Position numbers and translations under genes: made by a program
The notes under the pieces: generated by a model
The model's database searches: none
Told to the model about the DNA's origin: nothing
What the model saw: only the letters and a program-made list of their open reading frames with translations
Part shown: positions 17,258-64,000 of the stretch, in pieces
How positions within the stretch are numbered: position 1 is the first letter of the stretch
Layout of the letters: every line of letters begins with the position of its first letter
From: Enterobacteria phage GEC-3S
Length of the DNA stretch: 64,000 bases
Reading direction: 5' to 3' (one strand)
Sequence record: HE978309

Positions 17258-17335
17258 TTTAAACCTCCCATATAACAGAAAACGGGGCTAGTATAAAACT
17301 AGTCCCCGTTTGAGTCAACCATTATTTCTTAAAAA

Positions 17336-19387
17336 TTACATTTTAAATTTATCTGGCATTGCGTCTACAGATACCAGATCAGCGATAAGCTGACGTAGAG
17401 TTGCCTTATCTGCTTTCTTACGTTCGGTTTTAGCTTCGCTAATGAAGCTGGAGAAAGACAGGTCAGAAGCAGGTTTAACAACACCCTCACGGATGAATGC
17501 ATCACCGTCCGCGATCATCTCGCCAGATTCTTGTAATGCTGCCAGTTCACTTTTGTTCATAATATGTGCCTCAATGTAATAAGTTTCTTGTGAATCCGTA
17601 GATGCCGTAGCACGAGTTACCGTATCAAAGGATAACACAACACCGCGAGGAAGTAAAATCTCGCATTCTTTGTAAGCAAATGCTTTGTTACCTACTGGCA
17701 ATACAGGGATGTTTTCCGCGCCAGCAATGGAGAAAGCAACATTAGCGCCACCTTCACCGCGAGATCCAGCCATAGAATCTACCCCAGCAACGGCACTAGC
17801 CACGTTTGCATTCCAGCCGCCAAAAATGTTAGGTGCAAGGGAAGTGCTCACGTAGTTTTTAAAGTAAAACGCTTTTTGCTTACGTGCAGTTTCCCACATT
17901 TGAGACCGGAAGTCCATACCACGATACAGAATAGTACCCGGATCAAGTTTAACGCCATAGTTAGAGAAGGCATTATCCAGTGCATCGCACATCTTGACCA
18001 ATTCTTCTGGATCTGCGATTCCCTCAAACTCTTCCAGCTTGCGATCAGTTAGGAAGTTGTTCATATTGATGTATGCTGCATCGGCATATTCGCTCAACAC
18101 AAAACCTTCCGCGCCCGGCAGATCAAGATCAATATCTGCCATCATTTCACCCATGTTGCTAGCAATTGCTTCAAACATACCGGAAGCAACATTACGAAGG
18201 GCATCGGTTTTAATCTGGGTGATATGACTACGCAGCATTTCAGCTTTTACATCTGCTGGCATAGACTGGTCTACTCGATCCATTGCCAGGGCGGTGATCT
18301 TGTTTTCGAATACTTCCTCGCTCATGATTTCTTTTAAGCGTTTGATTGATGCTGCGATAACTTCCGCAGACAACGGATCATATTGATCCTGAACTTTTAC
18401 CAGTTCGCTTACTGCGTATTTTGCATCGGCTTCGCTTTCAAAAATAGTACGCATGAAACCATAGCGAGTGATAATATCACTTGTCCAGTCATTCAGAGAA
18501 CGGGCGGTTGAACGTTCTAAGGCTTGACGGTCAATCAGAGTATTAAACTGTTTCTTAGGTTCTGCTTCGGTGATATCTTCTTCCGGTTTAAGATTAATTT
18601 TTTCTGGATGATTCACATAGTCGCTGTTATAGGTCGCTTGAGTTTTCAGCATTTCTTCTTTAGTCAAACGAGATTTAGCCGCTACGCGTTGTTCTGCTTC
18701 CGCGTTTCGTTCTTCTTCTGACACAAGACTAGCCGCATATGCCTCATCTTTAGTCAGAGATTCACCAGTAGCCTTAGATACCCAGCGATCACCTAAATCA
18801 CTTTCTACTTTAGTGAACAAGGATTCATCAAGTTTAATCCCTTTAATCTTATCAATCGCCATCCCGCGACGCTTGACAACAACTAAAGCGATCTTTTTGC
18901 TGGTCATTACTTCCTGCTGGAATACTTCAAACTTCGGTGTACGACGCACCAAACGCTCTATAACGCGCTTAACCAGTTCGGTCTTACCTTTCATGCGGGA
19001 TACGTTAAAACGGAACATAACAGCGTCTAATTGCGCTTTACGGGCTGTTTCCATAACCACATCAAACGCACTTGCCATAACTGCAATCGGGTTATCGCCT
19101 AGACCATTTTTAAGCTGTACAATACGACCGCTTTTGTTCATTTCGCACAGTACAACATGTGCGGTCTTGTCGCCCATACGAATGATTTTAGGTGTTTTGT
19201 TGGTGAAGTTACAAAGACGGACAATCACATCTTTATCGCGTGTCTGTACTGCAAAAAGCTGTTTAGGATTCTGCTTAGGCTTTAAGCACTGTACCGGAGC
19301 AATACTGCCAAAGTTTTCTTCCTCTTCCGTCAACAGCCATTTCTCGAAAGATTCAATCATTAGATCGTCGATTTCTAAGTTAAACAT
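17336..19387 (-). CDS. alt: Alt ADP-ribosyltransferase
   Basis: 683 aa (T4 Alt 682 aa), T4 position next to gene 54; ILYRGMDFR, NYVSTSLAP, YKECEILLPRG motifs. Confidence 0.85.
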   Translation of the reverse strand: MFNLEIDDLMIESFEKWLLTEEEENFGSIAPVQCLKPKQNPKQLFAVQTRDKDVIVRLCNFTNKTPKIIRMGDKTAHVVLCEMNKSGRIVQLKNGLGDNPIAVMASAFDVVMETARKAQLDAVMFRFNVSRMKGKTELVKRVIERLVRRTPKFEVFQQEVMTSKKIALVVVKRRGMAIDKIKGIKLDESLFTKVESDLGDRWVSKATGESLTKDEAYAASLVSEEERNAEAEQRVAAKSRLTKEEMLKTQATYNSDYVNHPEKINLKPEEDITEAEPKKQFNTLIDRQALERSTARSLNDWTSDIITRYGFMRTIFESEADAKYAVSELVKVQDQYDPLSAEVIAASIKRLKEIMSEEVFENKITALAMDRVDQSMPADVKAEMLRSHITQIKTDALRNVASGMFEAIASNMGEMMADIDLDLPGAEGFVLSEYADAAYINMNNFLTDRKLEEFEGIADPEELVKMCDALDNAFSNYGVKLDPGTILYRGMDFRSQMWETARKQKAFYFKNYVSTSLAPNIFGGWNANVASAVAGVDSMAGSRGEGGANVAFSIAGAENIPVLPVGNKAFAYKECEILLPRGVVLSFDTVTRATASTDSQETYYIEAHIMNKSELAALQESGEMIADGDAFIREGVVKPASDLSFSSFISEAKTERKKADKATLRQLIADLVSVDAMPDKFKM

Positions 19388-22113: not shown

Positions 22114-22126
22114 ACTTTTTATAAAA

Positions 22127-22294
22127 TTATTTGTTAATTTCTGGTGCGTTGCTAGGATAGTAACCTTCTTTAACTCCGAGGTATTTCGCAACCATCCCTA
22201 CAATCTTCTGTGCTACTACAATGTCAAATTTCAGATAATCTTCGCCGTAGGTTTCAATGATATATGCTTCACATGCTGCTTTAGTCTCGAACAT
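22127..22294 (-). CDS. Hypothetical early protein (55 aa); paralog of 25403..25570
   Basis: MFETKAACEAYIIETYGEDYLKFDIVVAQKIVGMVAKYLGVKEGYYPSNAPEINK; near-identical C-terminus to 25403..25570. Confidence 0.45.
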   Translation of the reverse strand: MFETKAACEAYIIETYGEDYLKFDIVVAQKIVGMVAKYLGVKEGYYPSNAPEINK

Positions 22295-22329
22295 TTTGAT
22301 TCTCCTATATTTCGTTTCGGTATGGGTGT

Positions 22330-24451: not shown

Positions 24452-24653
24452 ATTCTAGTTCTCCGTAATACACGGTAATCCATTTTTCTTCATATTTTGT
24501 ATCTTTCCAGCACACAATACCGTTTACTGTGCAATCTTTGGAATTGACGAATGATTCATATTGTTCCGCATCTTCCATCATTTCATGAGCGGTCTTTTCA
24601 TCGAATATATCGCAGATCGCTTTATATGCTCGATAATCTTTAAATTTGCTCAT
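24438..24653 (-). CDS. Hypothetical small protein (71 aa); tandem paralog of 24656..24865
   Basis: Both start MSKFKDY[RK]AY; internal ATG at 24653. Confidence 0.45.
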   Translation of the reverse strand: MSKFKDYRAYKAICDIFDEKTAHEMMEDAEQYESFVNSKDCTVNGIVCWKDTKYEEKWITVYYGELEYEIN

Positions 24654-24865: not shown

Positions 24866-25146
24866 AACAACACCACCGATACATCGTAATCATTCGCGAC
24901 CTTATCGGCTTCTTCAACCGACATAATACCTTCTGCGACAATTGGCATAGGGTGATCGTGATTCCACCAATGGTCATGTATATCAATTTCAGTTTTGCCG
25001 GAAAATGAATCATGTTTGACGTTTTTCACTTTATACCCGATGTGACCGTCGTGGTCAATAAAGATATAGTTTCCGAAAATCGGTGTCTGTAAAATCATAC
25101 CGAAAAATTTTTCTTTGTTGTTCGGGTCGAGTGTAATCATTTTCAT
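24862..25146 (-). CDS. HxHW-motif family protein (paralog 4)
   Basis: IDIHDHWWNHDH...AEGIMSVEEADKVA; AAGAGG RBS. Confidence 0.55.
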   Translation of the reverse strand: MKMITLDPNNKEKFFGMILQTPIFGNYIFIDHDGHIGYKVKNVKHDSFSGKTEIDIHDHWWNHDHPMPIVAEGIMSVEEADKVANDYDVSVVLL

Positions 25147-25158
25147 AATATATTCCTC

Positions 25159-25338: not shown

Positions 25339-25370
25339 TTTGATTCTCCGTTTGTTGTCTTGATGGGAGT

Positions 25371-25400: not shown

Positions 25401-25402
25401 GA

Positions 25403-25570
25403 TTATTTGTTAATTTCTGGTGCGTTGCTCGGATAGTAACCTTCTTTAACACCCAGATATTTTGCAACCATTCCGGTGATCTTCTGTGCTACTACGATAT
25501 CGAATTTCAGGTAGTCTTCACCGTGGTTTGCTACAATGTATGCTTCGCATTCTGCTTTAGTCTGGAACAT
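25403..25570 (-). CDS. Hypothetical early protein (55 aa); paralog of 22127..22294
   Basis: MFQTKAECEAYIVANHGEDYLKFDIVVAQKITGMVAKYLGVKEGYYPSNAPEINK; internal ATG of ORF-track ORF 25403..25636. Confidence 0.5.
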   Translation of the reverse strand: MFQTKAECEAYIVANHGEDYLKFDIVVAQKITGMVAKYLGVKEGYYPSNAPEINK

Positions 25571-25604
25571 TTTTGATTCTCCTATATCTCGTTGGTATGT
25601 GTGT

Positions 25605-27204: not shown

Positions 27205-27681
27205 TTATTTTTCTTGATGCTCGCGCTCGTACTTTTCGAAATAAAATTCTACTGGCTGATCGTGGATTGAAAGCAAGCCAAAGCGTTTAGCCGCTCGCAA
27301 TCCCATATTGCGCTGAATGTACTTCTGGAAGTTCTCGCGTATACACTTACGCCAGTATTCTAAGCCCATACAGCTTTTATAAAGATTGCATTGCACACAC
27401 GCCGGATTCATGTTATCAAGTATATCATGTTCCGGTTTATGCATTCCTACAACCTTATACTTCCACGATCCATCATCATTACGGGCAATTCGTCCATTTT
27501 CATCATAGACTACCTTTGAGCGTCGCAATACTGGTTTGATATGGTCTGCGTGCCAGCGATCCCCTAGTTCCTCGCCACAATAGGCACAACGCCCACCGTA
27601 TTTCATTTTCAGGATCTGGCGTTGCTCTTTCTTTGACAATTTTTTAGGTTTAGGGGCTTTCGCCCCTTCATTATCACACAT
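27205..27681 (-). CDS. HNH homing-endonuclease-like protein
   Basis: CAYCG ... WHADHIKP ... CVQCN (HNH-type Cys/His motifs); overlaps 3' end of ligase gene by 8 nt. Confidence 0.7.
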   Translation of the reverse strand: MCDNEGAKAPKPKKLSKKEQRQILKMKYGGRCAYCGEELGDRWHADHIKPVLRRSKVVYDENGRIARNDDGSWKYKVVGMHKPEHDILDNMNPACVQCNLYKSCMGLEYWRKCIRENFQKYIQRNMGLRAAKRFGLLSIHDQPVEFYFEKYEREHQEK

Positions 27682-29170
27682 CGAATACCTCTTTTACTGT
27701 ATTTGCCGTGGTCTTGTCGTAGCGAATACGTTTGATGATCGGGAGAAATAAAGAGAACTCCGGTTCATCTTCTTTACGTGATTTGCTGCGAATGTACCCG
27801 TTGCATGTCATCTCAATGACTTTTCCGACCAGGTTATGCCGTTCAGCCCATAACATTTCTCGGTCAAGTTCATTTCGACGATCGAACGGAATTACACGTT
27901 CAGTACCATCATCACCTTTTTCGGTTGTAGTGTCGGTTAATCCCGATCCGGTGTTAGTCATCATTCGTCCGCACGCACTACGGACAGTAAAACCGCCTAC
28001 CTTATTGGGGTCTTTACTATGCGGATATACATCAACAATTTCCGCGTCGAAGTCAATAACTTCTTTAAATTTAACCTGATCTTTACTGCGACGATCTTCA
28101 AATACACCATGTAAATTTTTAAGGATAATACCTTCTAAGCCCATGTTTACATAGCGATGATATACTTCGCGAGCTTCATCGATATTGTTAACTACGGTAT
28201 TTTCGATTATCTGAACACGAGGATCGTTAAGTTCTTCAACAATCTGTTTTAGTTCTTCGAATCGATCTTTATATTGCTTCGTTGCTTTCTCGTTTCCGTA
28301 ATACACATCACGGTCGATAACATCCCAGACAGTGTAAACAATACATTGGGCTTCTTCTTTTGGAATAGTTCCTTTCAGTGATTTGTTGAGGATACCATTT
28401 CCGGTCTGACGATCTGCAACAACGGATTCTTTCACCGCTTCCGCTACTGGCGTTAATGGCATTTCCTCTTCTTCAAATATCCATGACAGAGTACCATCAT
28501 AAACGCTCTCAACGAAGTTCTGCGCTGGTGTTTGCGAAAGGGTAGGCATATATACCAATTCGCCATCTAGAACAATTCCACGGCCTCGTAGACGCTCTAA
28601 AACCGCAAACAAATCATCAAGCCCTTGATAGGTATTACCTGAGCGGGTATAGATTGCTAATGTTTCCCCGTCAATATCAGCCATACCACGAGCGCCATCG
28701 CTTTTAAGTTGTGCATACGCCGGATACTTGATATTAGAAATAGTCTTATCAGAACATGACGATGCAAGGTGGCACGGTTGCTGAGGGATCAGTTTCTTCC
28801 ATACCTTGTTTGCAGTGGTAGCGGAACAACCGCATTCCAGGTCACGATTCAGGACCATCATTGCAACTTTAGCATCATCCTCTGACAAGCAAGTCAGAGT
28901 ATCGGTAACTAGCTGTAATGCTGCGTTGCCAGTTACTTGACGCGTGGCAAGTTTATTTTTAAAGACCTGTAATGCACCGGATAAAGACAATACAGACGAA
29001 TAGCGAGATGGTTTATCGTATTTCTTTACGCCAAACGTAACCTGTTTGCAATATGCCAGATAAAAGCATTCTTTCAGCGTTTCATTGCTCGCGGATTCTT
29101 TCAGAATCTTTTCTTTCAGCGATGTTTTGTCTGTTGCTGCAAGCTGATTAATGATATTAAGAATTGACAT
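27674..29170 (-). CDS. 30: ATP-dependent DNA ligase gp30
   Basis: Aligns with T4 DNA ligase (AQLKSDGAR KxDG site; TRQVTGNAA; NRDLECG; ANKSLKGTI.KEEAQC; EGIILKN); ATG at 29170 with GAGGTG RBS. Confidence 0.93.
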   Translation of the reverse strand: MSILNIINQLAATDKTSLKEKILKESASNETLKECFYLAYCKQVTFGVKKYDKPSRYSSVLSLSGALQVFKNKLATRQVTGNAALQLVTDTLTCLSEDDAKVAMMVLNRDLECGCSATTANKVWKKLIPQQPCHLASSCSDKTISNIKYPAYAQLKSDGARGMADIDGETLAIYTRSGNTYQGLDDLFAVLERLRGRGIVLDGELVYMPTLSQTPAQNFVESVYDGTLSWIFEEEEMPLTPVAEAVKESVVADRQTGNGILNKSLKGTIPKEEAQCIVYTVWDVIDRDVYYGNEKATKQYKDRFEELKQIVEELNDPRVQIIENTVVNNIDEAREVYHRYVNMGLEGIILKNLHGVFEDRRSKDQVKFKEVIDFDAEIVDVYPHSKDPNKVGGFTVRSACGRMMTNTGSGLTDTTTEKGDDGTERVIPFDRRNELDREMLWAERHNLVGKVIEMTCNGYIRSKSRKEDEPEFSLFLPIIKRIRYDKTTANTVKEVFDV

Positions 29171-29636
29171 TTTCACCTCGTTTTGTTAAACGTTCACGAA
29201 TATCATTGAGGATACTACAAAATTCCGATTCAGTCAATATAGTCTTTAACGGATCTGTTCCACCTATACTATGACGCAATTTCTTATTTCCGGTAGCGAG
29301 TAATGCTTTACAAAATTCTGGGTTATTCCGTGCCATCGTAACAAATGCCAGATGTACCAGTCTGTAATAATGCTCACTCATTCGATGAATCGGGCGACCC
29401 TGAAAATATAGCATGTGATTCTCTATCTTTTCAGTCCTTCCGGTTCTTTTTGCTTTGCCACCGTGCATCAAAAAGATTTCTCTTTGTCTCTGGGGGTTCT
29501 TGAATCTTAATCCCTGTAAAAATCCTTCTGTGCTGTTAATATCGCAACCAAATAGACGGAATGGTCTTTTATTGAAATTACTCAATTCACCCGATGGATA
29601 AGGTCCACCCGCATAGATATCAATTTCATAAGTCAT
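29157..29636 (-). CDS. NADAR (YbiA-like) domain protein
   Basis: SNFNKRPF, STEGFLQGLRF, KALLATGNKKL...GG resemble NADAR family motifs; function inferred. Confidence 0.5.
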   Translation of the reverse strand: MTYEIDIYAGGPYPSGELSNFNKRPFRLFGCDINSTEGFLQGLRFKNPQRQREIFLMHGGKAKRTGRTEKIENHMLYFQGRPIHRMSEHYYRLVHLAFVTMARNNPEFCKALLATGNKKLRHSIGGTDPLKTILTESEFCSILNDIRERLTKRGENVNS

Positions 29637-54994: not shown

Positions 54995-57763
54995 ATGGCA
55001 GATTTAAGCAGAATCCAATTTAAACGCACTAGCACTAAAGGTCGTAAACCTGATGCTAGTACGATGAATCCGGGGGAATTGGCAATCAACCTTGCGGATC
55101 AATATCTTCTTACTAAAAATGATTCCGGTGCTATTATCAATTTAAGTTGCCCTCCGGTGTATGACCGTGATGTTACAATGGCGGGTAAGGTTAAAGGTAA
55201 TAATTATATCTTAGGTAAAACCGCCAACTATCTGGAAGATCAGACAGCGCGAGATCTTAACTACTTTGGTGCTTTCCGTACCAATGGTCTTGATGGTTTT
55301 CTCGAACTCACGCTAAACGTTCCTCATTCTTCTGGTGTTCAGCATGGTCGAGGATTTACTTTCCAGTATGGACACACAGGAAACCGTGTAGAAACTTATG
55401 GTTATAATAAAGAAGGACAAAAAGCATTTAGCTATAAAATGTATCACGAAGGTGATAAACCAACACCCTCAGAATTGAACGTTTACAGCAAACAAGAAGT
55501 TGACCGTATGTTTGTTAAAAACGTTAAACTTGCTACAGTTCCTGGTGATATAGTTGACGGTTATTTTAAATTAGCAACTGCAATGATTCCGCAAAGCGGT
55601 CGTAGTGTATTTTTCCGTATTCATGGTGGTAACGGATATAACGTTACTGCATACGATCAAGTTGATATTGTAGAAATTGTTATTCGCAGTGGAAATAATC
55701 GTCCTAAAGGTGTTAACGTTATTGCATATCGCCGAAATACAAACAAAGCATTTGATGTTTTGGCTGTTAATACTTCTGGTGATAACTATGATATCTACGT
55801 GAAATATCAGCGTTATACTGATAACGTTATTGTTGAATTTGGTAAAAGTGTTGATGTTAATCTGGTAGTCCATGACGTTCCAGACTTTGTTGTTGATCGT
55901 CCTGCTGGCGATAATGTTATTGGCGGTCGCGCGGTAACTCTTTTTAACACCGAAAACAAACGAGGTGTGTTGAGTTTTGACGATAACACACAAAATAGTT
56001 ATGATATTGTTCACTTGAGTAATGATAGGGGTACTGGACGAAAATATATTCGTAAATTCCGTAGTAACTATAATGAAATGATCTGGCACGAGACGGTTCA
56101 AGGCGCCAGCTATCGTCTGGCTACTGGTGCAACTGATGTTCAGGAGATTCTAACCGTTGAATCTGTTAGCTCAATTGCTGGAACTCATAAAGGTAATATT
56201 ACTTCTGGCCGTATGCTGTTAAATGGTGGTAGTAATGTTATTACCTTGCGGCGTCCTGCTGGTCAATCCAACCATATTGCGTTTCAAGATAATCGTACTG
56301 GAGATATTACCCGTCAAGGATGGATCGGTTATGCCAATGCTGATACTAACGTTTTTGAATGGTATAGTGATGTAGGTGGCAGTTCTATTCGTCAACATAT
56401 CGACGGACAGATCGAATTTCAGACAGGTAGCATGAAGCGAGTTTATACTAACGGACAATTCATTTCATTATATGCCGATGGCTTCCGTACAGTATATGGA
56501 AACTATGGTTCATGGTGGCGAAATGACGGTAGTAACGTTTATCTGATGAGCACAAAATCAGGCGACACTATGGGTCCGTGGAATACCTTTAGGCCGTTCA
56601 TATACAGTCTCGCCAATGGAAACGTTACTCTAGGTGGTAGCGATGCTGGCAACCATTTAATGCGTCTCAATAATGAAAATCGTCAAGTAGAAATAAATGC
56701 AACAACACATTTAGGGTCTCGATTATATTGGGAACGTAGCGAAGGATCGGCATCTAGATTTTTTATTAAGAATTGGGGTAATGGATCTTCTCGCGCTCAA
56801 GTGTGGGAACTTGCTGACGAGACAGGTTATCATGTATATTCTCAGCGAAACGACGCGGGTGTTCTTCAATTCCGTACTGCTGGTAATTTTGAGACTGGTG
56901 GTGATGCTCAAGTAAACGGGACTTTACGTGTCACCAATGTTCTTCGAACAGATAACCAAATTCAGATTTATCGCGATAACAACAAAGAACTCTGGTTTAA
57001 GGATGCTAATGGTACTAACCGTGGTGTTATCTGGGGTGATAGCACAGGTCAAATGCGCATTCGAAACTATAACAGCGGAGAATTTGACCATGTTTTCCAG
57101 ACTGGTATGATTCGCTTAGAACGTGGGTATGCAAACGGTAGCGACCGTGGTTTGATTCGCGGAGAAGTACAAGGTGGTGCTTGGTCAGAATGGAAAACTC
57201 GCGCTGCTGGCTTATTGGTTGACTGTCCAGCTGCTCAAACTTCCGCATATAACGTATGGAAAGCGACCAAATGGGGTTTAGACCACATCGCGGCAATGGG
57301 CGTTCATGTTCCTAGTGGCGTTATTACTAATGCTATGGCACGTCTTCATATTCATACCACAAACTTTGACTTTAACGCCTCCGGTGATTTCCAAGCAGGT
57401 CGTAACGGTAATTTTAACGATGTGTATATTCGTTCTGATGCTCGCCTTAAAATCAATAAGGAAGAGTATAAGGAGAATGCCACCGATAAAGTTAATCGCT
57501 TGACGGTATACACCTATGACAAGGTTAAATCTTTAACCGACCGTACTGTCATTGCTCATGAAGTTGGTATTATTGCTCAGGATCTTGAGAAAGAATTGCC
57601 GGAAGCCGTAACAACTTCTAAGGTCGGCGATCCTGATAAGCCAGAAGAGATCTTAACAATTTCTAACTCTGCTGTCAACGCTCTTTTAATTAAGGCGTTT
57701 CAGGAAATGAGCGAAGAACTTAAAGCCGTTAAAGCTGAACTAGCGGAACTTAAAAAGAATTAA
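54995..57763 (+). CDS. 37: Long tail fibre distal subunit gp37-like with C-terminal intramolecular chaperone (S74-like) domain
   Basis: 922 aa; C-terminal YIRSDARLKINK ... resembles auto-cleaving IMC domains of phage fibres; position upstream of holin t. Confidence 0.8.
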   Translation: MADLSRIQFKRTSTKGRKPDASTMNPGELAINLADQYLLTKNDSGAIINLSCPPVYDRDVTMAGKVKGNNYILGKTANYLEDQTARDLNYFGAFRTNGLDGFLELTLNVPHSSGVQHGRGFTFQYGHTGNRVETYGYNKEGQKAFSYKMYHEGDKPTPSELNVYSKQEVDRMFVKNVKLATVPGDIVDGYFKLATAMIPQSGRSVFFRIHGGNGYNVTAYDQVDIVEIVIRSGNNRPKGVNVIAYRRNTNKAFDVLAVNTSGDNYDIYVKYQRYTDNVIVEFGKSVDVNLVVHDVPDFVVDRPAGDNVIGGRAVTLFNTENKRGVLSFDDNTQNSYDIVHLSNDRGTGRKYIRKFRSNYNEMIWHETVQGASYRLATGATDVQEILTVESVSSIAGTHKGNITSGRMLLNGGSNVITLRRPAGQSNHIAFQDNRTGDITRQGWIGYANADTNVFEWYSDVGGSSIRQHIDGQIEFQTGSMKRVYTNGQFISLYADGFRTVYGNYGSWWRNDGSNVYLMSTKSGDTMGPWNTFRPFIYSLANGNVTLGGSDAGNHLMRLNNENRQVEINATTHLGSRLYWERSEGSASRFFIKNWGNGSSRAQVWELADETGYHVYSQRNDAGVLQFRTAGNFETGGDAQVNGTLRVTNVLRTDNQIQIYRDNNKELWFKDANGTNRGVIWGDSTGQMRIRNYNSGEFDHVFQTGMIRLERGYANGSDRGLIRGEVQGGAWSEWKTRAAGLLVDCPAAQTSAYNVWKATKWGLDHIAAMGVHVPSGVITNAMARLHIHTTNFDFNASGDFQAGRNGNFNDVYIRSDARLKINKEEYKENATDKVNRLTVYTYDKVKSLTDRTVIAHEVGIIAQDLEKELPEAVTTSKVGDPDKPEEILTISNSAVNALLIKAFQEMSEELKAVKAELAELKKN

Positions 57764-57805
57764 GGAAAACTCCCAGGGAAGGGAAACTACTAAGGAGAAA
57801 CGGCT

Positions 57806-58045
57806 ATGGTCTATAATATCGTCATTGGTGCTTTGTCTAGTTTCGGAATGAAATTATTGTCAAAGTTAATTAGTGAAAAGATGCTCACTAAAATTTTCTT
57901 CTATTGCGCTCGTCGTCTTGCGGCTTATACCAATACGCCAATTGATGATCGTTTTGTGGAAGAACTTTATAAGGAGTTTAATAAAGATCAGTCAGAAGAT
58001 AGTAACGAGCAAGAGAAACCTAGTGATAGTCAACTACCTAAATAA
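57806..58045 (+). CDS. Hypothetical small protein with N-terminal hydrophobic segment (79 aa)
   Basis: ORF between gene 37 and t, where T4 has gene 38; no similarity to gp38 recognised. Confidence 0.45.
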   Translation: MVYNIVIGALSSFGMKLLSKLISEKMLTKIFFYCARRLAAYTNTPIDDRFVEELYKEFNKDQSEDSNEQEKPSDSQLPK

Positions 58046-58078
58046 GAGTACACTGTCATAGTTATCTTAGGGCATTAT

Positions 58079-58735
58079 ATGCAAGTTTCTGAAAAAGGGA
58101 AAGACTTTGCTATCTCAAATGTCCTGCGCGCTATTTTCACAACTAAAAGCACGGAGTTGCTCGTACTTCGTGTTTTTGCTGCCGTCGTGTTGTCCATATT
58201 GGCATTTGTCGTTTATAGTAAAAACGAGTTGTTTGCGCTTTATAAAGAGACTCGTTATGAGACTTATGCTCACATTCTCCAGGTAGAGAAAGACCGCAAT
58301 TTTGATAATGCAGCACAGGAGCAGTTACAGATAGTTCATGTGTCGGCTGATGCCGATTTTTCTGCTGTTTTTAGTTTTCGTCCGAAAAACCTAAACTATT
58401 TTGTTGATTTGGTGGCATATGAAGGAAAGTTGCCGCATACAATCGATGAAAAAAATTTAGGCGGATTCCCTATCAATAAAACGAGTGAAGAATATCGTAG
58501 GCATCTTTTAGGTAAATCATATTTTACCGATAAAGATTTCCAGTATATTCCATCAAGAGAAAAGAAATTAGAGAATATCGATATAGGTTTCATGTATTCT
58601 TGTCCTATATTCAATCTCGATAATGTCTATTCTGGTAGTATCGCCATTTCATGGAAGAATAAACCGGATATTGACATTGAGAATTTAGATACTCTTTGCA
58701 ATCAATCTGCCAGAATCCTCGGAAGGATTAGATAA
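58079..58735 (+). CDS. t: Holin T
   Basis: 218 aa; aligns with T4 holin (YETY; EQLQIVH.S.DADFSAV.SFRPKNLNYFVD..AYEGKLP; MYSCP.FNLDN.Y.G.I; ARILGR). Confidence 0.9.
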   Translation: MQVSEKGKDFAISNVLRAIFTTKSTELLVLRVFAAVVLSILAFVVYSKNELFALYKETRYETYAHILQVEKDRNFDNAAQEQLQIVHVSADADFSAVFSFRPKNLNYFVDLVAYEGKLPHTIDEKNLGGFPINKTSEEYRRHLLGKSYFTDKDFQYIPSREKKLENIDIGFMYSCPIFNLDNVYSGSIAISWKNKPDIDIENLDTLCNQSARILGRIR

Positions 58736-58740
58736 CTTAA

Positions 58741-58772
58741 AGGGGAAGCCTTTCGGCCTCCCCTTCTTTTTA
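58741..58772. terminator. Bidirectional terminator between holin t and convergent minus-strand gene
   Basis: AAA-GGGGAAGCC-TTTC-GGCCTCCCC-TTCTTTTTATT. Confidence 0.65.
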
Positions 58773-59018
58773 TTGGCGCATAGAAGCCCCTGAATCACAT
58801 TTTGACGCTGTATGATGAAAACAGGTAGCGTACCAGTCATCGGCTTGTTTGTCTTCGTCAGAAAACGCGTAATTGCGTTGTATGCCGTTTTCTACTTTGA
58901 CCAGTGCAATAGCTGTTTCTGGAAGATCAATCAATCGGACAAAATCACCATCTTCCCACTCTACACGAGCAATATCATAGCCCATCTCAAAGTATACAAT
59001 CGCTTGTTCTAATTTCAT
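58770..59018 (-). CDS. DUF2829/Tad2-like small protein (candidate anti-Thoeris sponge)
   Basis: 82 aa; N-terminal A..Y....G....R.EW and C-terminal acidic DDWY resemble DUF2829 as recalled; low-certainty motif call. Confidence 0.4.
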   Translation of the reverse strand: MKLEQAIVYFEMGYDIARVEWEDGDFVRLIDLPETAIALVKVENGIQRNYAFSDEDKQADDWYATCFHHTASKCDSGASMRQ

Positions 59019-59344
59019 TCTGGAAACTTCCCGTAAACATTCTCTGCCAGCTTACGTGCATCTTTTACAATATCTTTCATGTAGTGACTATAATTTTTAG
59101 CTAGATCAATGATGCAATCAACAAAGAAGTAATAGCGTCGCAGTGCTACCAGCTCAACATCTTCAAGATGACCATTTTCTCCAATCGCTGAAATATGTTT
59201 AAATTCCTTTCGGATCGCATCCATCGCTACATTAACTTCTTTTATAATATCTTTCGTATTATATGCACCTCGACTAATCAAAATTTTGGTTAGGTCTTCT
59301 GCTTTTTCGTGAAAGTTGTCAATTTCAAACTCGATCATAATCAC
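59015..59344 (-). CDS. Hypothetical protein (109 aa); paralog of 59453..59785
   Basis: C-terminal ...ENVYGKFPE vs ...ENIFGKF; ATGA coupling. Confidence 0.5.
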   Translation of the reverse strand: MIMIEFEIDNFHEKAEDLTKILISRGAYNTKDIIKEVNVAMDAIRKEFKHISAIGENGHLEDVELVALRRYYFFVDCIIDLAKNYSHYMKDIVKDARKLAENVYGKFPE

Positions 59345-59452
59345 CTCTCATAATTTCACGCTGTTGTTTCAACATTTTTTCGTGGTTTGCTAATTCTATA
59401 CCTTGTAATAGCATAACCAGTGCAATTTTCAATGATTCATCATCTTTCATAA

Positions 59453-59785
59453 TCAAAATTTACCGAAAATATTCTCTGTCATAATTCTTGCTTCGTCGAT
59501 TATTTTCGTCATGTTCATGGTGTAGTTATGATCATTTAATGCCTTAATGACAACGAGCAAGGAATCTAAAAACACTCGATACCGGGTATATTCTACGCTA
59601 TTTGTGAATACCGATGTTTTCTCTACTTTATCGATCAGATAGCCTAAAACCGATAGCGCCTCGTTTACTTCCCTTGTTACTTTATCGGCGCTAAACAACA
59701 CCGGATAAAGACGCGGTGTGATTAACCGCGCTGCCTCTTTCAATTCGGTCGCTTTCCATGATTCATATTTGTCATAGTTAAACAA
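59453..59785 (-). CDS. Hypothetical protein (110 aa); paralog of 59015..59344
   Basis: Similar length and C-terminal motif. Confidence 0.5.
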   Translation of the reverse strand: MFNYDKYESWKATELKEAARLITPRLYPVLFSADKVTREVNEALSVLGYLIDKVEKTSVFTNSVEYTRYRVFLDSLLVVIKALNDHNYTMNMTKIIDEARIMTENIFGKF

Positions 59786-59797
59786 TGTATAATCTCC

Positions 59798-60130
59798 TTA
59801 CAGATGAAAACCTGTTACAATCACCGCATCGATCATACCGCTAGGAATAAACGGTTCGCCCTCTTTTATTTCAACTTTGAATTGATGCCATTTCGCTAAT
59901 ACTTCTTCCGGTACACCCAGCGATTCGGCGTCTGCTTTAGTTTCATCCATAATCCAACTAGGCTGCATGAGAGCATAGTTTACATAGTCCATTTCTGGGG
60001 TCATGTCATCAATGTTAATATATTTGCAGTTGACGCGTTTCAGAATTTCAAATTCTTTATTGTCAACCTGTACCATGTATAATTCAGTAGTTTCTGGAAT
60101 CAGTTCCCACACAATCAGTACATTTTTCAT
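59798..60130 (-). CDS. Hypothetical protein (110 aa)
   Basis: ORF in tightly packed minus-strand early cluster. Confidence 0.5.
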   Translation of the reverse strand: MKNVLIVWELIPETTELYMVQVDNKEFEILKRVNCKYINIDDMTPEMDYVNYALMQPSWIMDETKADAESLGVPEEVLAKWHQFKVEIKEGEPFIPSGMIDAVIVTGFHL

Positions 60131-60138
60131 AGTTCACC

Positions 60139-60507
60139 TCACTTAACAAAGATTTTCTTTAATGCTTTCAGGATCGTTGCTTCCGGCGCTTCTTCCGGTG
60201 GAGGAAGCAATTCTACCACTTCCTCTTCCAACTCGATATAGTCTACCAGATATTCTACATAGAATGCAAGTGCTTCCATGAAATTAGATGCTACATCCGA
60301 TTCGCCACACGCGCCCACATGCATTGTATAAACATCACTGCGATCAAGTTTGTGGATGCTCCCCAGATAGTTTCGGTTATACCAGACTTCCCACACTTTC
60401 AACTTTCCGGTTTTGGTTGCTGTTTTATAATCGGTTTCGTAATGATGCAATTGACGTTGCAGATCATTGATAATAACACATTTTTCGTAATTGTTTTGAA
60501 TTTCCAT
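60139..60507 (-). CDS. Hypothetical protein (122 aa), acidic C-terminus
   Basis: ORF with GAGGAT RBS. Confidence 0.5.
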   Translation of the reverse strand: MEIQNNYEKCVIINDLQRQLHHYETDYKTATKTGKLKVWEVWYNRNYLGSIHKLDRSDVYTMHVGACGESDVASNFMEALAFYVEYLVDYIELEEEVVELLPPPEEAPEATILKALKKIFVK

Positions 60508-60517
60508 GATGTAATCC

Positions 60518-60709
60518 TCACTTATCGTTAAGAAGTTCTAAAACTTTCTGTCGTACTTTGTCAATATTAGTTGATTCAAAAACTGTACGGTATCCCCAAC
60601 CTTGACCGTATGATCGCGAGCAATCCCCATATCCCCATTGTTCAACCTGATAGTATTCAAGGAATTGGTGCTGCCGAACTATGATACCATCGCGATTAAA
60701 AATTACCAT
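60518..60709 (-). CDS. Hypothetical small protein (63 aa)
   Basis: ORF with GAGGAT RBS. Confidence 0.4.
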   Translation of the reverse strand: MVIFNRDGIIVRQHQFLEYYQVEQWGYGDCSRSYGQGWGYRTVFESTNIDKVRQKVLELLNDK

Positions 60710-60732
60710 AATATAATCCTCACGTCAACAAC

Positions 60733-61014
60733 TTATTTTCGGTTGTAATTCTGCCACTTTCGGTAATACTGCTTGTAATATTGTTTAATGTTTGGTGGTT
60801 CGTCACTATACATGTTATCAACCATCATGTCAATAAGACCTTCCGGTGTTTGATAGTTACCCGCTCGAATGAGTTCCTTAATCAAAAGATCTTGTGTCGC
60901 TTTATACTTGACAATAACAACTGTCTTTTCTGCCTTTCCAATTCCGATCCGGTCGTTAGCTCTCATAGCATCCCACCAATCTTTTTTAAACTTCATGTTG
61001 TTAAATTTCATCAT
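60733..61014 (-). CDS. Hypothetical protein (93 aa)
   Basis: ORF abutting upstream secreted-protein gene. Confidence 0.45.
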   Translation of the reverse strand: MMKFNNMKFKKDWWDAMRANDRIGIGKAEKTVVIVKYKATQDLLIKELIRAGNYQTPEGLIDMMVDNMYSDEPPNIKQYYKQYYRKWQNYNRK

Positions 61015-61815
61015 TTAACCCTTCTTATATTCGCAAACATATTGAGTACCATAATCATAGCTAATGCGACCTTTCTCGATGACTTCAAAGCGGATTTCAT
61101 CGTTTTCCCCTACCCACATTTTGTACTCGTTGAAGTATCCTGCTACATCCGGTTTGCTCATACCAACAACCATATTTTTATATTGTTTGCTGCGTGTCAG
61201 ATTTGATTTAAACACTTCGCGCTCATCAACATATACGAAAGAAGACAATTCACCTTCGGTCATGGTCATTTTCAGCTTGCCGCCCTTGTTGCCATAAGTA
61301 GAGTTGCCATACAATGGATCTTTGCGGCTGTCTGTTTCAATACCATCAATGATTTTCCATGTAAATTTTGCAATGCACTGATAAGTGATAGATCCAGAGA
61401 TTTTCTCTTCTTTCTTCTGTTCTTCCACCACTTTTTCTTCCTGTTTCGGCTGTTCTTCTTCAACCTTCACGGAAGTCTCTGAATCGATTTCTGACGCGGT
61501 TTCTTCTTTAGGTAATACATTCATCAAGTTTTGGATTTGAGCGTTATATACAGCCTCCAGTGGCTGGATCTGCCCGATATTGATCATTGTATCACGAACA
61601 GTTTTATTCCAGTTGCGTTGCTCTTGTTTAAGAGACGGATCAATCTTAACAGCCTTAACATATACTTCATGAAGTTTCGAATCCAGTGCGGAGATTGACT
61701 CATTAGCACAAATAAACTTCTCTGATTTGGTAGTAGCTTTAGCGCAATCAAAGGACGCAGCATTAGCACCGAAAGCAGTAGCAGAAAGAACGATAGCAGC
61801 GATAATGTTTTTCAT
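61015..61815 (-). CDS. Secreted protein with DUF1311/LprI-like N-terminal domain
   Basis: Signal peptide MKNIIAAIVLSATAFGANA; FDCAKATTKSEKFICANESISALDSKL pattern; own promoter. Confidence 0.6.
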   Translation of the reverse strand: MKNIIAAIVLSATAFGANAASFDCAKATTKSEKFICANESISALDSKLHEVYVKAVKIDPSLKQEQRNWNKTVRDTMINIGQIQPLEAVYNAQIQNLMNVLPKEETASEIDSETSVKVEEEQPKQEEKVVEEQKKEEKISGSITYQCIAKFTWKIIDGIETDSRKDPLYGNSTYGNKGGKLKMTMTEGELSSFVYVDEREVFKSNLTRSKQYKNMVVGMSKPDVAGYFNEYKMWVGENDEIRFEVIEKGRISYDYGTQYVCEYKKG

Positions 61816-61848
61816 AATATATTCCTCAATGTTTTTCTTGATGGGAGT

Positions 61849-61878
61849 ATCTTACTACTCCCTTAATCCGGTGTCAAC
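61849..61878 (-). promoter_or_regulatory. Sigma70-like early promoter (GGGAGTA...TACTCCC palindrome around -10)
   Basis: TTGACA - 17 nt - TAAGAT; same palindrome as near 25.37 and 35.02 kb. Confidence 0.5.
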
Positions 61879-61884
61879 TACTTT

Positions 61885-62097
61885 TTAATTTTTACCCACT
61901 CGTGCATTAATGCGCATTTTCTGCATAGCCATGATCTGGTTTACTGCTTCTTCTTTACGTTCTTGCGTGATAACGTGACCAGATTCCGCAAACTCTCCAG
62001 CAACTTCTTCTACGATCTCGCGAACTTGAGAACGTCCAAAGATGCGGTTTCCTTCGTAGCTCATAAATTCAGTCACTACTTGCTCAATAGATTTCAT
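61885..62097 (-). CDS. Hypothetical small protein (70 aa)
   Basis: ORF with GGAGAATCACATG RBS. Confidence 0.5.
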   Translation of the reverse strand: MKSIEQVVTEFMSYEGNRIFGRSQVREIVEEVAGEFAESGHVITQERKEEAVNQIMAMQKMRINARVGKN

Positions 62098-62129
62098 GTG
62101 ATTCTCCTTCTTTCGTTTCGGTGTGGTAG

Positions 62130-62160
62130 TATGTTAATACTCCCATTTCTTTACGTCAAC
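62130..62160 (-). promoter_or_regulatory. Weak sigma70-like promoter (TTGACG -35, poor -10)
   Basis: -35 TTGACG with conserved leader CCGAAACGAA; -10 hexamer not clearly matched. Confidence 0.3.
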
Positions 62161-62166
62161 CAGTTT

Positions 62167-62409
62167 TTAGAAATTTTTCGCTTCTTCTTCGGTCATCATC
62201 ACCGCGCATTCGTGCATAACTTTGAAAACCGGGTCAATCATATCGAATGCTTCGCGGGACAGTTTACGAGAAGCGATTTTGACTGCTTCAACGTCTTCTA
62301 CTACAGGAACAAAAACAGTTTTCAGTTCGTCGAGCATGGCAGCTTCTTTTTCATTCAGGAAGATTCCAGCGTCGTACAATGCAACTTCGATAACATTAAC
62401 TTTAACCAT
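62167..62409 (-). CDS. Hypothetical small protein (80 aa)
   Basis: Internal ATG at 62409 downstream of promoter; ORF-track ORF (to 62472) would overlap the promoter. Confidence 0.5.
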   Translation of the reverse strand: MVKVNVIEVALYDAGIFLNEKEAAMLDELKTVFVPVVEDVEAVKIASRKLSREAFDMIDPVFKVMHECAVMMTEEEAKNF

Positions 62410-62443
62410 TTTTATTTCCTCCAGTTCGTTTCGGTATGGGAGT

Positions 62444-62473
62444 ATAATACTACCGATGACCTTTGGCGTCAAC
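62444..62473 (-). promoter_or_regulatory. Sigma70-like early promoter
   Basis: TTGACG - 17 nt - TATTAT with conserved leader and GGAGGAA RBS. Confidence 0.45.
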
Positions 62474-62673
62474 TAGTTTTTGTTATTTTCGTGAAAATTT
62501 TTCGTCGCCTCATGTGCTTTTCTCTGGGCTTCTTGTTGTGCTTGCTGGCGTGCTGCCTCTTGCGATGTCATAACGGAAGCATTTGCAGCAGTTACAGCCG
62601 CGACCATCGCTGCGGTATTAGCATTTACAGTACATGCACTAGCCAGCAAAGCAATTGCAATCATTTTCTTCAT
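62473..62673 (-). CDS. Small secreted protein (66 aa, signal peptide)
   Basis: MKKMIAIALLASACTVNA signal-peptide-like N-terminus; ATGA coupling. Confidence 0.45.
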   Translation of the reverse strand: MKKMIAIALLASACTVNANTAAMVAAVTAANASVMTSQEAARQQAQQEAQRKAHEATKNFHENNKN

Positions 62674-62840
62674 AGTTTCCCCTTTAGGTTATCTTCGACC
62701 TTCATCCATTCCGCGTATTCTTGCGCGGCTACTTTCGGATTTAGTCCGTCTTCGTACATTGCTTCAAGTAATTCTTCGTCGGTGGGCTTATACCCTAGAT
62801 AAGCCTCCACCTGATTTTTCCAAATTTTATACCAGTTCAT
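62670..62840 (-). CDS. Hypothetical small protein (56 aa; alternative start 62909)
   Basis: Internal ATG at 62840 avoids 65-nt overlap with upstream gene; RBS weak, start uncertain. Confidence 0.35.
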   Translation of the reverse strand: MNWYKIWKNQVEAYLGYKPTDEELLEAMYEDGLNPKVAAQEYAEWMKVEDNLKGKL

Positions 62841-62844
62841 ATTA

Positions 62845-63117
62845 TCACCAGTCAAGAGCGCGTGTCTCTGCGTCTTCCCATGCTTGATCCATAACAGCCT
62901 TGAAAACATATTCTAAAGTATCATCTTTAGAGAATCCGAAGACCTTAGACGGGATATCTTCAATTGCTACTCCCGCAACTTCTGCATTACGCGCTTGGCA
63001 ATAATGCAACTCTAAGTTATCGAGATAGCGACCGCCTAATTTCTCCATATCATCCCAGCATTTCCAGTAACCTACTTTATCTGCAATTGCTAACACTTTG
63101 CTGTTTTTGTTGCTCAT
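62845..63117 (-). CDS. Hypothetical protein (90 aa)
   Basis: Internal ATG at 63117 with GGAGAATCAAAG RBS directly downstream of promoter. Confidence 0.5.
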   Translation of the reverse strand: MSNKNSKVLAIADKVGYWKCWDDMEKLGGRYLDNLELHYCQARNAEVAGVAIEDIPSKVFGFSKDDTLEYVFKAVMDQAWEDAETRALDW

Positions 63118-63148
63118 CTTTGATTCTCCTTTTGTTTGGTATGGGTGT

Positions 63149-63178
63149 ATTATGCAATGCTGGATTTGTGAAGTCAAC
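63149..63178 (-). promoter_or_regulatory. Sigma70-like early promoter
   Basis: TTGACT - 17 nt - CATAAT. Confidence 0.5.
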
Positions 63179-63197
63179 AACTTTTTAAAATAAAAAA

Positions 63198-63222
63198 AGC
63201 CGACCACAAGGATCGGCTTAAT
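63198..63222 (-). terminator. Hairpin terminator after 63229..63624
   Basis: A-run then AGCCGA-CCACAAGGA-TCGGCT on plus strand. Confidence 0.5.
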
Positions 63223-63228
63223 AATCAG

Positions 63229-63624
63229 TTACTTACTAAATTTCTTTTTGGCTTCGTCTACTGCATGAGATGCCAGTACCGCAGCCGCATGTGCACTTTT
63301 ATCTGTGTTGCAGAGAACACCCAGATAAACATCACGCCAAAGTTTAATCATCTCGTAGATCATATCAATATCATTTTCTTGTTTGTTGGCGATGCTATTC
63401 GTCGTTATCTGGTAAGGCAACGGCTTGATCTGTACTGGTTCCGCCATCGGGCTAATCGGTTTCGGATCAGTCATAATAGGTGCTGTTGTGGGCGGTGTTT
63501 TCCATACGCCATTATTCCACGGTTTAATTGTTGTATCGTAAAGTTTATAAGGGTTTTTGTCTGGGTCAACCATCCATGCATGATGAGTACCCAAACCATT
63601 TGAAGTGATGCGTCGTTCAGTCAT
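63229..63624 (-). CDS. Hypothetical protein (131 aa)
   Basis: ORF; no recognised domain. Confidence 0.5.
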   Translation of the reverse strand: MTERRITSNGLGTHHAWMVDPDKNPYKLYDTTIKPWNNGVWKTPPTTAPIMTDPKPISPMAEPVQIKPLPYQITTNSIANKQENDIDMIYEMIKLWRDVYLGVLCNTDKSAHAAAVLASHAVDEAKKKFSK

Positions 63625-63639
63625 AATTTATTTCCCCTC

Positions 63640-63831
63640 TTAAAATTCTTTCATCAAGCTATCGATCTTTGCTCTGTGTTCTGGCGTGTTTGTCATCTCT
63701 GCTAATTTGCTCAGAGATTCACTGGTGATCCGGTTGGATTCTTCCAGTGTTTCAACGACCATTGGCACAATCTTTTTATTGTTGTACAGAAATGCAATAT
63801 AACCGCCTTCTGGATATTCTTTCATAATCAA
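63640..63831 (-). CDS. Hypothetical small protein (63 aa; TTG start in ORF track, ATG 2 codons in)
   Basis: ORF; start uncertain. Confidence 0.4.
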   Translation of the reverse strand: MIMKEYPEGGYIAFLYNNKKIVPMVVETLEESNRITSESLSKLAEMTNTPEHRAKIDSLMKEF

Positions 63832-64000
63832 CCCTTCTTAAGTTCTTTAAGATCTTTCTTATATTCCTTCATTGCGGTCGTCTTTGTCCAATACTCATAT
63901 TCACTATGATGTTTATCGGCATCTTTGACCAGTCGATCATACTCTTCTTGAGTAACGCTATACAATGGCATAGAAACTAGCTTATCGGCGTATGAACGTA

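Follow-up and report, generated by a model that had tools for sequence, protein, structure and literature searches.

Two described systems bear closely on the subject of this report, the cluster of small leftward genes between the holin gene t and gene 52 of Enterobacteria phage GEC-3S (sequence record HE978309), which occupies positions 58770-63831 of the 64,000-nucleotide stretch analysed here, referred to below as the window. The first comprises the PeSL elements and hyperplastic regions described for phages RB49 and Phi1 (Arbiol, Comeau, Kutateladze, Adamia & Krisch, 2010, PMC2839356; Comeau et al., 2014, PMC4122927). A PeSL consists of an AT-rich stretch that includes the stop codon of the upstream gene, sigma70-type -35 and -10 boxes, a stem-loop, a Shine-Dalgarno sequence and the ATG of an ORFan, and these elements are concentrated in variable regions where the presence of genes differs at the cassettes. 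Strong early promoter activity and terminator activity have been measured for PeSLs of RB49 and Phi1 other than those treated here, mini-circles carrying ORFans have been reported, and the shuffling of ORFans by recombination between PeSLs has been proposed; ORF255-268 are not specifically discussed in the text of that paper (PMC2839356). The second system is the t-52 interval of phage T4, which holds asiA, asiA.1, arn, arn.1-arn.4, motA and motA.1.

It is likely that 58770-63831 represents the t-to-52 hyperplastic region of an RB49-type (Krischvirus) genome, standing at the position taken by asiA, arn and motA in T4, and that its cargo is an assortment of non-essential accessory genes that do not make up a single system. 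Clusters of this type and their cassettes have been described before, under the names hyperplastic regions and PeSLs (PMC2839356), and the region is a textbook case of that phenomenon, its sequences being present in GenBank as hypothetical proteins. What is new here is a borderline Tad2-like assignment for the first gene (g1), a link between the sixth (g6) and T4 arn.4, and a pattern of uneven conservation in the ninth (g9).

Promoter cassettes and gene turnover

Sixteen minus-strand open reading frames (ORFs), named g1 to g16 in order of position and separated by gaps of 0-70 nucleotides, are packed between holin t and gene 52, in agreement with an earlier note on this DNA that had described some 5 kb of small minus-strand genes following t. 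A megablast search with positions 58000-64000 matched 72 phage records, all of them RB49-like (genus Krischvirus), the closest being MIZ6, MIZ2 and MIZ3 (97.7 % DNA identity, 100 % query cover), followed by RB49, Phi1 and JSE with few indels. The gene order from t to 52 is the same in the Krischvirus relatives, and in every annotated relative the genes of this stretch are all labelled 'hypothetical protein'.

Four PeSL cassettes stand in the cluster, all on the minus strand. They lie upstream of g9 (61833-61886; TTGACA-17-TAAGAT, with a 7-bp stem over the -10 box), g10 (62109-62178; TTGACG-17-TAACAT), g11 (62422-62491; TTGACG-17-TATTAT, with two mismatches to a 24-nucleotide core) and g14 (63128-63219), where a terminator hairpin (63219-63197) with a T-run is followed by a promoter (TTGACT-17-CATAAT) and the repeat copy itself covers 63128-63190. 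In a consensus scan the corresponding -35/-10 pairs match at 9-10 of 12 positions with a 17-bp spacer (61877-61849, 62159-62131, 62472-62444 and 63177-63149). Read on the coding strand, all four have the stop codon of the upstream gene inside an A-rich run, then TTGAC(A/G/T), 17 nucleotides, the -10 hexamer, a conserved leader ACCCATACCGAAACGA, GGAG and ATG. This is the arrangement of the PeSLs of RB49 and Phi1, from which the cassettes show no essential difference, the stems being degenerate in two of the four.

The earlier note had also proposed that several of these genes carry the same promoter cassettes as an array lying between alt (17336-19387) and the DNA ligase gene (27674-29176), and this is confirmed by the four copies found here. 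Their repeat families (D1-D4 and D7) recur, in register, in some 15 copies elsewhere, at 19.6-27.2 kb (the alt-ligase array) and at 35 kb: the g9 cassette belongs to D4 and is 83 % identical to the copy at 25355, the g10 cassette contains D1, D2 and D4, and the g14 cassette D3 and D7. The 24-nucleotide cassette core has six matches in the window where none is expected. The stem of the g9 cassette (-11.9 kcal/mol) is more stable than those of shuffled sequences (z=-3.1), and the hairpin preceding the g14 promoter is clear as well.

On this basis the sixteen leftward genes would be transcribed early by the host sigma70 RNA polymerase starting at the PeSL cassettes, each laid out as an AT-rich stretch, -35 box, stem-loop, -10 box, conserved leader, Shine-Dalgarno sequence and start codon. 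The cassettes would also attenuate transcription arriving from upstream and, because they are repeated, may act as recombination sites at which single-gene modules would be inserted, deleted and swapped between related phages. The activity of PeSLs and their role in recombination are taken from the work of Arbiol et al. (2010) on other PeSLs, while the sequence features are those found here. Several points weigh against this account of the region. The stems of the cassettes at 62109-62178 and 62422-62491 are degenerate and no more stable than shuffled sequence, the promoter function of all four cassettes is a prediction from sequence, and, with ten of the ORFs lacking an assignment, the description of the cargo as mixed and accessory is in part a statement of ignorance.

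Gene content differs among the phages exactly in the PeSL-rich part, where the window has the order g9-g10-g11-g12-g13 and Phi1 has ORF262-263-263.1-264-265, ORF264 being g10; the position of g10 relative to the neighbouring cassettes varies between phages. MIZ6 has an additional 99-aa ORF in this part, SSG23 an additional ORF between g14 and g15, and Phi1 likewise carries extra ORFs at these junctions. Neither g11 nor g12 occurs in Phi1 or JSE, g11 is present in RB49, MIZ6 and SSG23, and a DNA search found the two genes together in 26 of 56 matching phage records. From these comparisons g11-g12 is a dispensable cassette and the g10-g12 segment probably a stretch that is swapped between related phages. 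The same feature of variable gene presence at the cassettes characterizes the PeSL regions of RB49 and Phi1.

Comparison with phage T4

The cluster and the T4 t-52 interval are alike in position, in orientation between t and 52, and in consisting of small early genes. They differ in that T4 has AsiA, MotA and Arn there, of which no homologues are present here. Pfam searches of the cluster ORFs found none of AsiA, MotA, Arn, Imm or Sp at E<=0.1, and the T4 t-52 proteins, Imm, Sp, rI and Vs.3 had no match below E=0.04 among 1002 six-frame ORFs of the window (phmmer --max). The earlier note, which had recognised no AsiA or MotA by eye and suggested searching also for Imm and Sp, is thereby upheld. 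The lack of MotA is in line with earlier work on RB49, a phage reported to have no middle-mode transcription and in which motA and middle promoters are missing (Nolan, 2006, PMC1524935); AsiA is listed only for RB69, 44RR, Aeh1 and KVP40 among the phages compared there.

The possibility that profile searches would place these ORFs among the T4 early genes, also raised earlier, proved true of one of the sixteen and not of the rest. The product of g6 (60139-60507, minus strand; 122 aa) matches a single T4 ORF, 162630-162959 in the arn.4 frame, with E=1.1e-5 in a phmmer search of 3041 six-frame T4 ORFs covering about 96 % of that genome, and the alignment shows the motif W[ED][IV]WY..YLG[ST]I...NFM.A. 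A relative of g6 in the diverged phage L011 (L011:4964-5326; 58 % identical) carries a precomputed match to PF26821 (Phage_T4_Y16F), the Pfam family of arn.4. Thus g6 is a homologue of arn.4, the one gene family common to both t-52 intervals and the only T4 gene kept in this one; the other fifteen ORFs have no T4 counterpart at E<0.01 in the same set of T4 ORFs. This provides the first cross-genus anchor for the T4 arn.4 ORF.

The similarity between g6 and arn.4 continues for about 23 codons ahead of the ATG at which arn.4 is annotated to start (T4 NC_000866 162627-162959, minus strand; L002:6628-6960). The frame is open in this extension and contains no ATG, GTG or TTG; the annotated 68-aa arn.4 may thus be too short, or its translation may begin at an unusual codon, which suggests that its annotated start needs review. 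Two weaker similarities to T4, that of g4 to tk.1 (E=0.02) and that of a g2/g4 profile (E=0.016), were judged not significant.

The Tad2-like product of g1

The leftmost gene, g1 (58770-59018, minus strand), encodes an 82-aa product that is identical to RB49ORF253c and to its counterparts in Phi1 and JSE and bears the UniRef name 'Thoeris anti-defense 2-like'; the gene adjoins t in two diverged phages as well. Against the Pfam Tad2-like profile (PF11195) it scores 27.9 bits with a cut-off of 25, residues 1-63 aligning to positions 1-71 of 73, and its diverged relatives P0025 and P0026 score 26.1 and 25.5 bits. An exhaustive search of 1.8 billion representatives yielded only four true relatives; three long matches were to eukaryotic FN3-repeat proteins and were set aside as spurious. 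The product also matches phrog_1048 at 5e-19. Solved Tad2 proteins were retrieved from the PDB with a probe sequence, and phrog_1048 is the best PHROG for MoTad2, HgmTad2 and SptTad2 too, through the same segment of the profile (110-195) as for g1 and its relatives.

When the two families were aligned by a MAFFT profile merge, W21 of g1 fell on the GW of the Tad2 sequence GWNGKG, and Y50-x-x-S53-x-E55-D56-x-x-A59-x-D61-W62 on W-x-x-S-x-T-D-x-x-A-x-D-W. The ligand contacts of SPO1 Tad2 are W25, N26, W73, S76, T78 and D79 (10.1101/2023.05.01.538930); with the numbering transferred through motif spacing, the first tryptophan is kept in the g1 family, the second is replaced by tyrosine, the serine is kept as S or T and the aspartate is kept. 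In common with the Tad2/DUF2829 sponges (SPO1 Gp34.65, HgmTad2/AcrIIA7, SptTad2 and MoTad2), g1 is small, lies in a cluster of early genes, and retains an N-terminal helix-G-x-x-[IV]-[AS]-R-x-x-W motif and a C-terminal aromatic-x-x-[ST]-x-x-D-x-x-A-x-D-W motif. It differs from them in a core of about 65 residues, compared with 85-105, and in having EWEDGDF in place of the GWNGKGM loop.

Assignment of g1 as a divergent, minimal member of the Tad2/DUF2829 superfamily is borderline but consistent. Tad2 proteins are homotetramers with two pockets between protomers, which sequester gcADPR or another immune signal and rescue phages from Thoeris, CBASS or Pycsar. As a member of this superfamily g1 would most probably act soon after infection by binding and sequestering a nucleotide signal used by a host immune system such as Thoeris, CBASS or Pycsar, a role that we regard as possible if on balance doubtful. 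A number of observations count against both assignment and role. Two of the ligand contacts are changed (N26 to E or D and T78 to E, in numbering inferred from motif spacing), and the family lacks the insert of 25-35 residues at beta2-beta3/alpha2 through which Tad2 dimerises. Neither the single sequence nor a profile of g1 matched PDB sequences, and hhalign of the g1 family against true Tad2 alignments covered only 23-27 N-terminal columns (E ~0.01). The topology of the AlphaFold2 model (a helix at 3-11, five strands and a helix at 54-58) fits that of Tad2, in which an N-terminal helix precedes an antiparallel sheet of five strands with alpha2 and alpha3 in loops, but the model is of low confidence, with a predicted local distance difference test score (pLDDT) of 63, and a Foldseek search of the PDB with this weak model found no Tad2. 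If g1 is Tad2-like, it would affect which Escherichia coli defence systems the Krischvirus phages overcome. Krischvirus phages are in use in phage-therapy cocktails.

The predicted exported proteins g9 and g12

In g9 (61015-61815, minus strand) the earlier note had seen a 266-aa secreted protein with a DUF1311/LprI-like N-terminal domain, and both parts of this description fit what we find. By heuristic reading, the N-terminus (MKNIIAAIVLSATAFGANA/AS) is built like a signal peptide (K-hydrophobic-AxA), and residues 24-77 score 24 bits against Pfam LprI (PF07007; cut-off 22), with a helical fold and a conserved cysteine pair. AlphaFold predicts a disordered signal peptide (low pLDDT at 1-20), helices at 30-98, a disordered acidic linker at 104-138 and an eight-stranded barrel at 141-263 (pLDDT ~87). 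The conserved cysteine pairs fit an oxidising compartment, and export to the periplasm is the most likely reading of these features.

Conservation along the protein is strikingly uneven. In an alignment of 22 relatives, which fall into at least five groups of alleles, the mature LprI domain has a mean pairwise identity of 97.4 %, compared with 32.5 % (down to 9 %) for the C-terminal 127 residues; the signal peptide, too, is almost invariant. Cysteines 24, 36, 147 and 261 are always present, Cys147 and Cys261 forming a pair within the barrel domain. Within Krischvirus, overall identity is 66 % for the RB49 and SSG23 alleles, and the JSE allele shares the first 138 residues only. The same N-terminal portion also occurs in bacterial chromosomes: a gene whose first ~400 nucleotides are 94-96 % identical to g9 is present in 26 of 5426 complete E. 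coli genomes. In E. coli H2 (NZ_CP028733, 2.546-2.559 Mb; L009:1-13324) the gene hicB is truncated by the insertion of a prophage that has genes for capsid, portal, terminase and Rha, and the last prophage gene is an LprI-family gene that has its 5' half in common with g9 at about 95 % DNA identity; the same arrangement of prophage and LprI gene is seen in two further sequences (L007 and L008). Separately, T4-like phages of Klebsiella and Aeromonas (e.g. MZ634349 and NC_048674) have homologues of about 93 aa with the signal peptide and LprI domain and no barrel.

Described proteins of similar build include Mycobacterium tuberculosis LprI, which, as predicted for g9, combines a Sec signal, an LprI/DUF1311 helical domain with a cysteine pair and a small beta-barrel, in that case an MliC domain. 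Other LprI-domain proteins of the periplasm are Salmonella ScwA and predicted immunity proteins of type VI secretion systems, whose envelope location is the one predicted for g9. The Pfam name LprI should not be read as a function, because the lysozyme inhibition of M. tuberculosis LprI is attributed to its MliC domain, and ScwA, which has the LprI domain only, gives no protection from lysozyme (PMC7933661). In a structure search the g9 barrel resembled generic small barrels (Cap15, the TbpB C-lobe, NHBA and lipocalins); Pfam found nothing in the barrel, and a search of PDB sequences with g9 gave nothing usable.

This distribution of conserved and variable parts fits a protein with a constant handle and a head for binding that can be exchanged. 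In such a protein the invariant LprI-type helical domain would carry a disulfide-closed beta-barrel on a flexible acidic linker, and the barrel, exchanged or diversified between alleles, would bind a variable incoming or periplasmic target, for example a component of a competing phage or a cell-wall hydrolase, and so protect the infected or lysogenic cell. That g9 is a periplasmic protector of this kind, binding its variable target through the barrel, seems to us rather unlikely. Weighing against it are that lysozyme inhibition has not been demonstrated for the LprI domain by itself (PMC7933661), that an MliC/PliC (PF09864) identity of the barrel was rejected, there being no profile match and no such protein among the structural neighbours, and that the hypervariability could reflect relaxed constraint or plain module swapping with no arms race. 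Uneven conservation together with sharing by prophages is the kind of signature that has earlier led to exclusion and immunity proteins. A bolder proposal would make g9 a new class of polymorphic phage periplasmic proteins, with LprI 'handles' and interchangeable barrel 'heads' traded between virulent T4-like phages and prophages and conferring allele-specific protection against competing phages or cell-wall effectors, and would separately see in g1 the smallest functional sponge of the Tad2 type, one whose ligand or oligomer arrangement is new; we consider this quite unlikely.

The 66-aa product of g12 (62473-62673, minus strand) is a second predicted exported protein, as had been noted earlier from its signal peptide. 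Its N-terminus (MKKMIAIALLASACTVNA/N) is signal-peptide-like by heuristic reading and fits the permissive PROSITE lipobox pattern (LLASAC), and the mature part is rich in Ala and Gln; g12 is thus read as a small, probably exported protein, possibly a lipoprotein. A tblastn search of phages with g12 returned nothing, probably through low-complexity masking, and it was the DNA search that found the gene in 26 records.

Nature of the cargo

The secreted or periplasmic proteins had earlier been put forward as candidates for superinfection exclusion or envelope modification, a view that would make the cluster mainly a module for these functions, its secreted products acting in the manner of T4 Imm or Sp. 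Spackle (Sp) and Imm are early, envelope-acting products, Sp being small and periplasmic with a similar ALASC-type signal peptide, and the signal-peptide-like N-termini of g9 and g12, the hypervariability of the predicted exported domain of g9, and the fact that the last gene of an E. coli prophage is a close relative of g9, prophage ends being where exclusion and conversion genes are typically found, are all in keeping with such a role. However, 14 of the 16 products have neither an export signal nor a membrane segment, there is no sequence similarity between the cluster products and Imm or Sp, and a Tad2-like cytoplasmic protein and an arn.4 homologue point to other roles. Because only two of the sixteen products are predicted to be exported, an exclusion or envelope function does not describe the whole cluster, and as an account of it we find this reading improbable. 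Another reading would make the cluster for the most part an island of counter-defence genes, comparable to the arn portion of the T4 interval, in which every one of the small acidic cytoplasmic proteins, g1 as a signal sponge among them, would disarm some host defence system. The corresponding interval of T4 retains Arn, an inhibitor of McrBC, most of the products here are small and acidic (pI 4.4-5.8), g1 is Tad2-like, and small early ORFs of T-even phages repeatedly prove to be sponges, as with Vs.3, which is TadIV-1 (PMC13243611). Yet just one ORF can be connected with a known family of anti-defence proteins, and the connection is borderline; PADLOC and NCBIfam gave no match for the cluster, and small size and acidity are not specific. 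We regard a counter-defence island as unlikely.

It might also be argued that mobile PeSL cassettes carry most of the ORFs as selfish or near-neutral passengers, of little or no benefit to the phage, with the weak domain matches representing remnants. Cassette genes are indeed gained and lost between near-identical phages, ORFan-carrying mini-circles have been reported (Arbiol et al., 2010, PMC2839356), and 11 of the ORFs have no detectable family of assigned function. Against this, the g1-g7 proteins are mostly 95-100 % conserved in five of the Krischvirus genomes compared, the exceptions being g2 (48 % in SSG23) and g3 (91-92 % in Phi1 and SSG23), and g1, g2, g5, g6 and g8 remain recognisable, in unchanged order, in a phage in which they are only 35-58 % identical. 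The conservation of g1-g7 and the retention of five genes in order in a diverged phage argue for purifying selection, and in g9 the four cysteines and a predicted intact fold are found in all alleles. Selfish cargo is a very doubtful description of most of these genes, and a hyperplastic region carrying a mixed set of accessory genes is the reading that we prefer.

Borders and gene inventory

All 16 ORFs are conserved in related phages and are for this reason considered real genes, not chance ORFs. PHROG families were matched by 14 of them, all of unknown function, g11 and g12 being the two without a match, and NCBIfam, PADLOC and Rfam searches of the cluster gave no match. The left border is formed by holin t (58079-58735, plus strand), which matches Pfam Phage_holin_T at 4.5e-61 and is called holin in Phi1, MIZ6 and JSE, and both GC and AT skew become negative exactly at this border, at 58.7 kb. 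Between the convergent t and g1 lies a hairpin (58739-58766) with a 12-bp G+C-rich stem (-23.6 kcal/mol; z=-5.7, none of 200 shuffles being as stable), which is likely to be a bidirectional terminator. The right border is the 3' end of gene 52, encoding the topoisomerase II medium subunit (63828-64000, minus strand), as identified by the match of 63828-63971 to phrog_551 (1.4e-12) and by the annotation of Phi1 and MIZ6.

Next to g1 is a pair of paralogs, reported previously as ORFs 59015-59344 and 59453-59785 and corroborated here. The first, g2 (59015-59338, minus strand; about 107 aa), starts at the ATG at codon 3 of the longer ORF according to the Phi1 annotation and the PHROG alignment, and the second, g4 (59453-59785, minus strand), encodes 110 aa. 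The two are 37 % identical over 43 C-terminal residues (BLASTP E=8e-8), both match phrog_9457 (8e-57 and 3e-43), and each aligns along its whole length with L010:48-380, a metagenomic relative (2e-17 and 1e-15). They are the products of an old duplication, and the family has the C-terminal motif ENV[YF]GKF; no member was found among the six-frame ORFs of T4. Between them, g3 (59325-59450, minus strand; about 41 aa, phrog_17009) corresponds to Phi1 ORF256.1 and is the least certain gene of the set, because it is unannotated in MIZ6.

The remaining genes, all on the minus strand, are for the most part ORFans. An acidic 110-aa product is encoded by g5 (59798-60130; phrog_4658), which is 52 % identical to its counterpart in the diverged phage L011 and had no match in Pfam, NCBIfam, PDB or PADLOC; PDB sequence searches with g6 and g15 likewise gave nothing usable. 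Beyond g6 are g7 (60518-60709; 63 aa, phrog_6957) and g8 (60733-61014; 93 aa, basic, phrog_15915), the latter varying among relatives, with 49 % identity in RB49 and 73 % in JSE. Flanking g9 on its other side are g10 (61885-62097; 70 aa, phrog_14966) and g11 (62167-62409; 80 aa, acidic), and the g9 and g11 products are exact matches of GEC-3S BN201_0263 and BN201_0265. After g12 follow g13 (62670-62840; 56 aa, phrog_8655), g14 (62845-63117; 90 aa, phrog_7287), g15 (63229-63624; 131 aa, phrog_15644) and g16 (63640-63825; about 61 aa, phrog_15105). The starts of three ORFs were corrected, from 62167-62472 to ATG 62409 (g11), from 62670-62909 to 62840 (g13) and from 62845-63207 to 63117 (g14), and ORF 63640-63831 probably starts at ATG 63825. 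The start of g16 adjoins the stop codon of gene 52, and the two are for that reason probably co-transcribed.

The g7-g8 region has some features of its own. The best sigma70 consensus match of the region (60833-60805; TTGACA-17-TATAGT, 11 of 12) sits inside the g8 coding sequence, about 95 nucleotides upstream of g7, and falls outside the PeSL repeat families. A near-identical translation initiation region, GAGGAATATATTATG, is present at g7 (60697-60721), at g9 (61803-61827) and at one gene of the alt-ligase region (25134-25158). At the junction of the g8 and g7 homologues of Phi1 (L001:5711-5790, corresponding to 60710-60740 of the window) a 27-nucleotide unit, AGTACAACCGAAAATAAGTTGTTGACA, is repeated three times in tandem, with one copy each in the window, RB49 and JSE. 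A PeSL remnant or deletion scar between g8 and g7 was considered and rejected, the difference being this tandem triplication in Phi1.

Other features of the window

In the stretch before t (54995-58045), the distal long-tail-fibre gene 37 encodes a 922-aa gp37 that has a Gp34_trimer domain and, at its C-terminus, an intramolecular chaperone domain of the Peptidase_S74 type. There is no gp38 between 37 and t, only a 79-aa ORF (57806-58045; phrog_402), whereas the diverged relative L011 has a gp38 adhesin in that position. At 16433-19387, two adjoining minus-strand ORFs, of 274 aa and 683 aa, the longer being the Alt homologue, match the ADP-ribosyltransferase exoenzyme family. The alt-ligase hyperplastic region also contains a 172-nucleotide direct repeat (22126-22297 and 25402-25573; 85 % identity) and an 88-nucleotide repeat pair (at 24568 and 24780), which suggest that further duplicated ORFs are present there.

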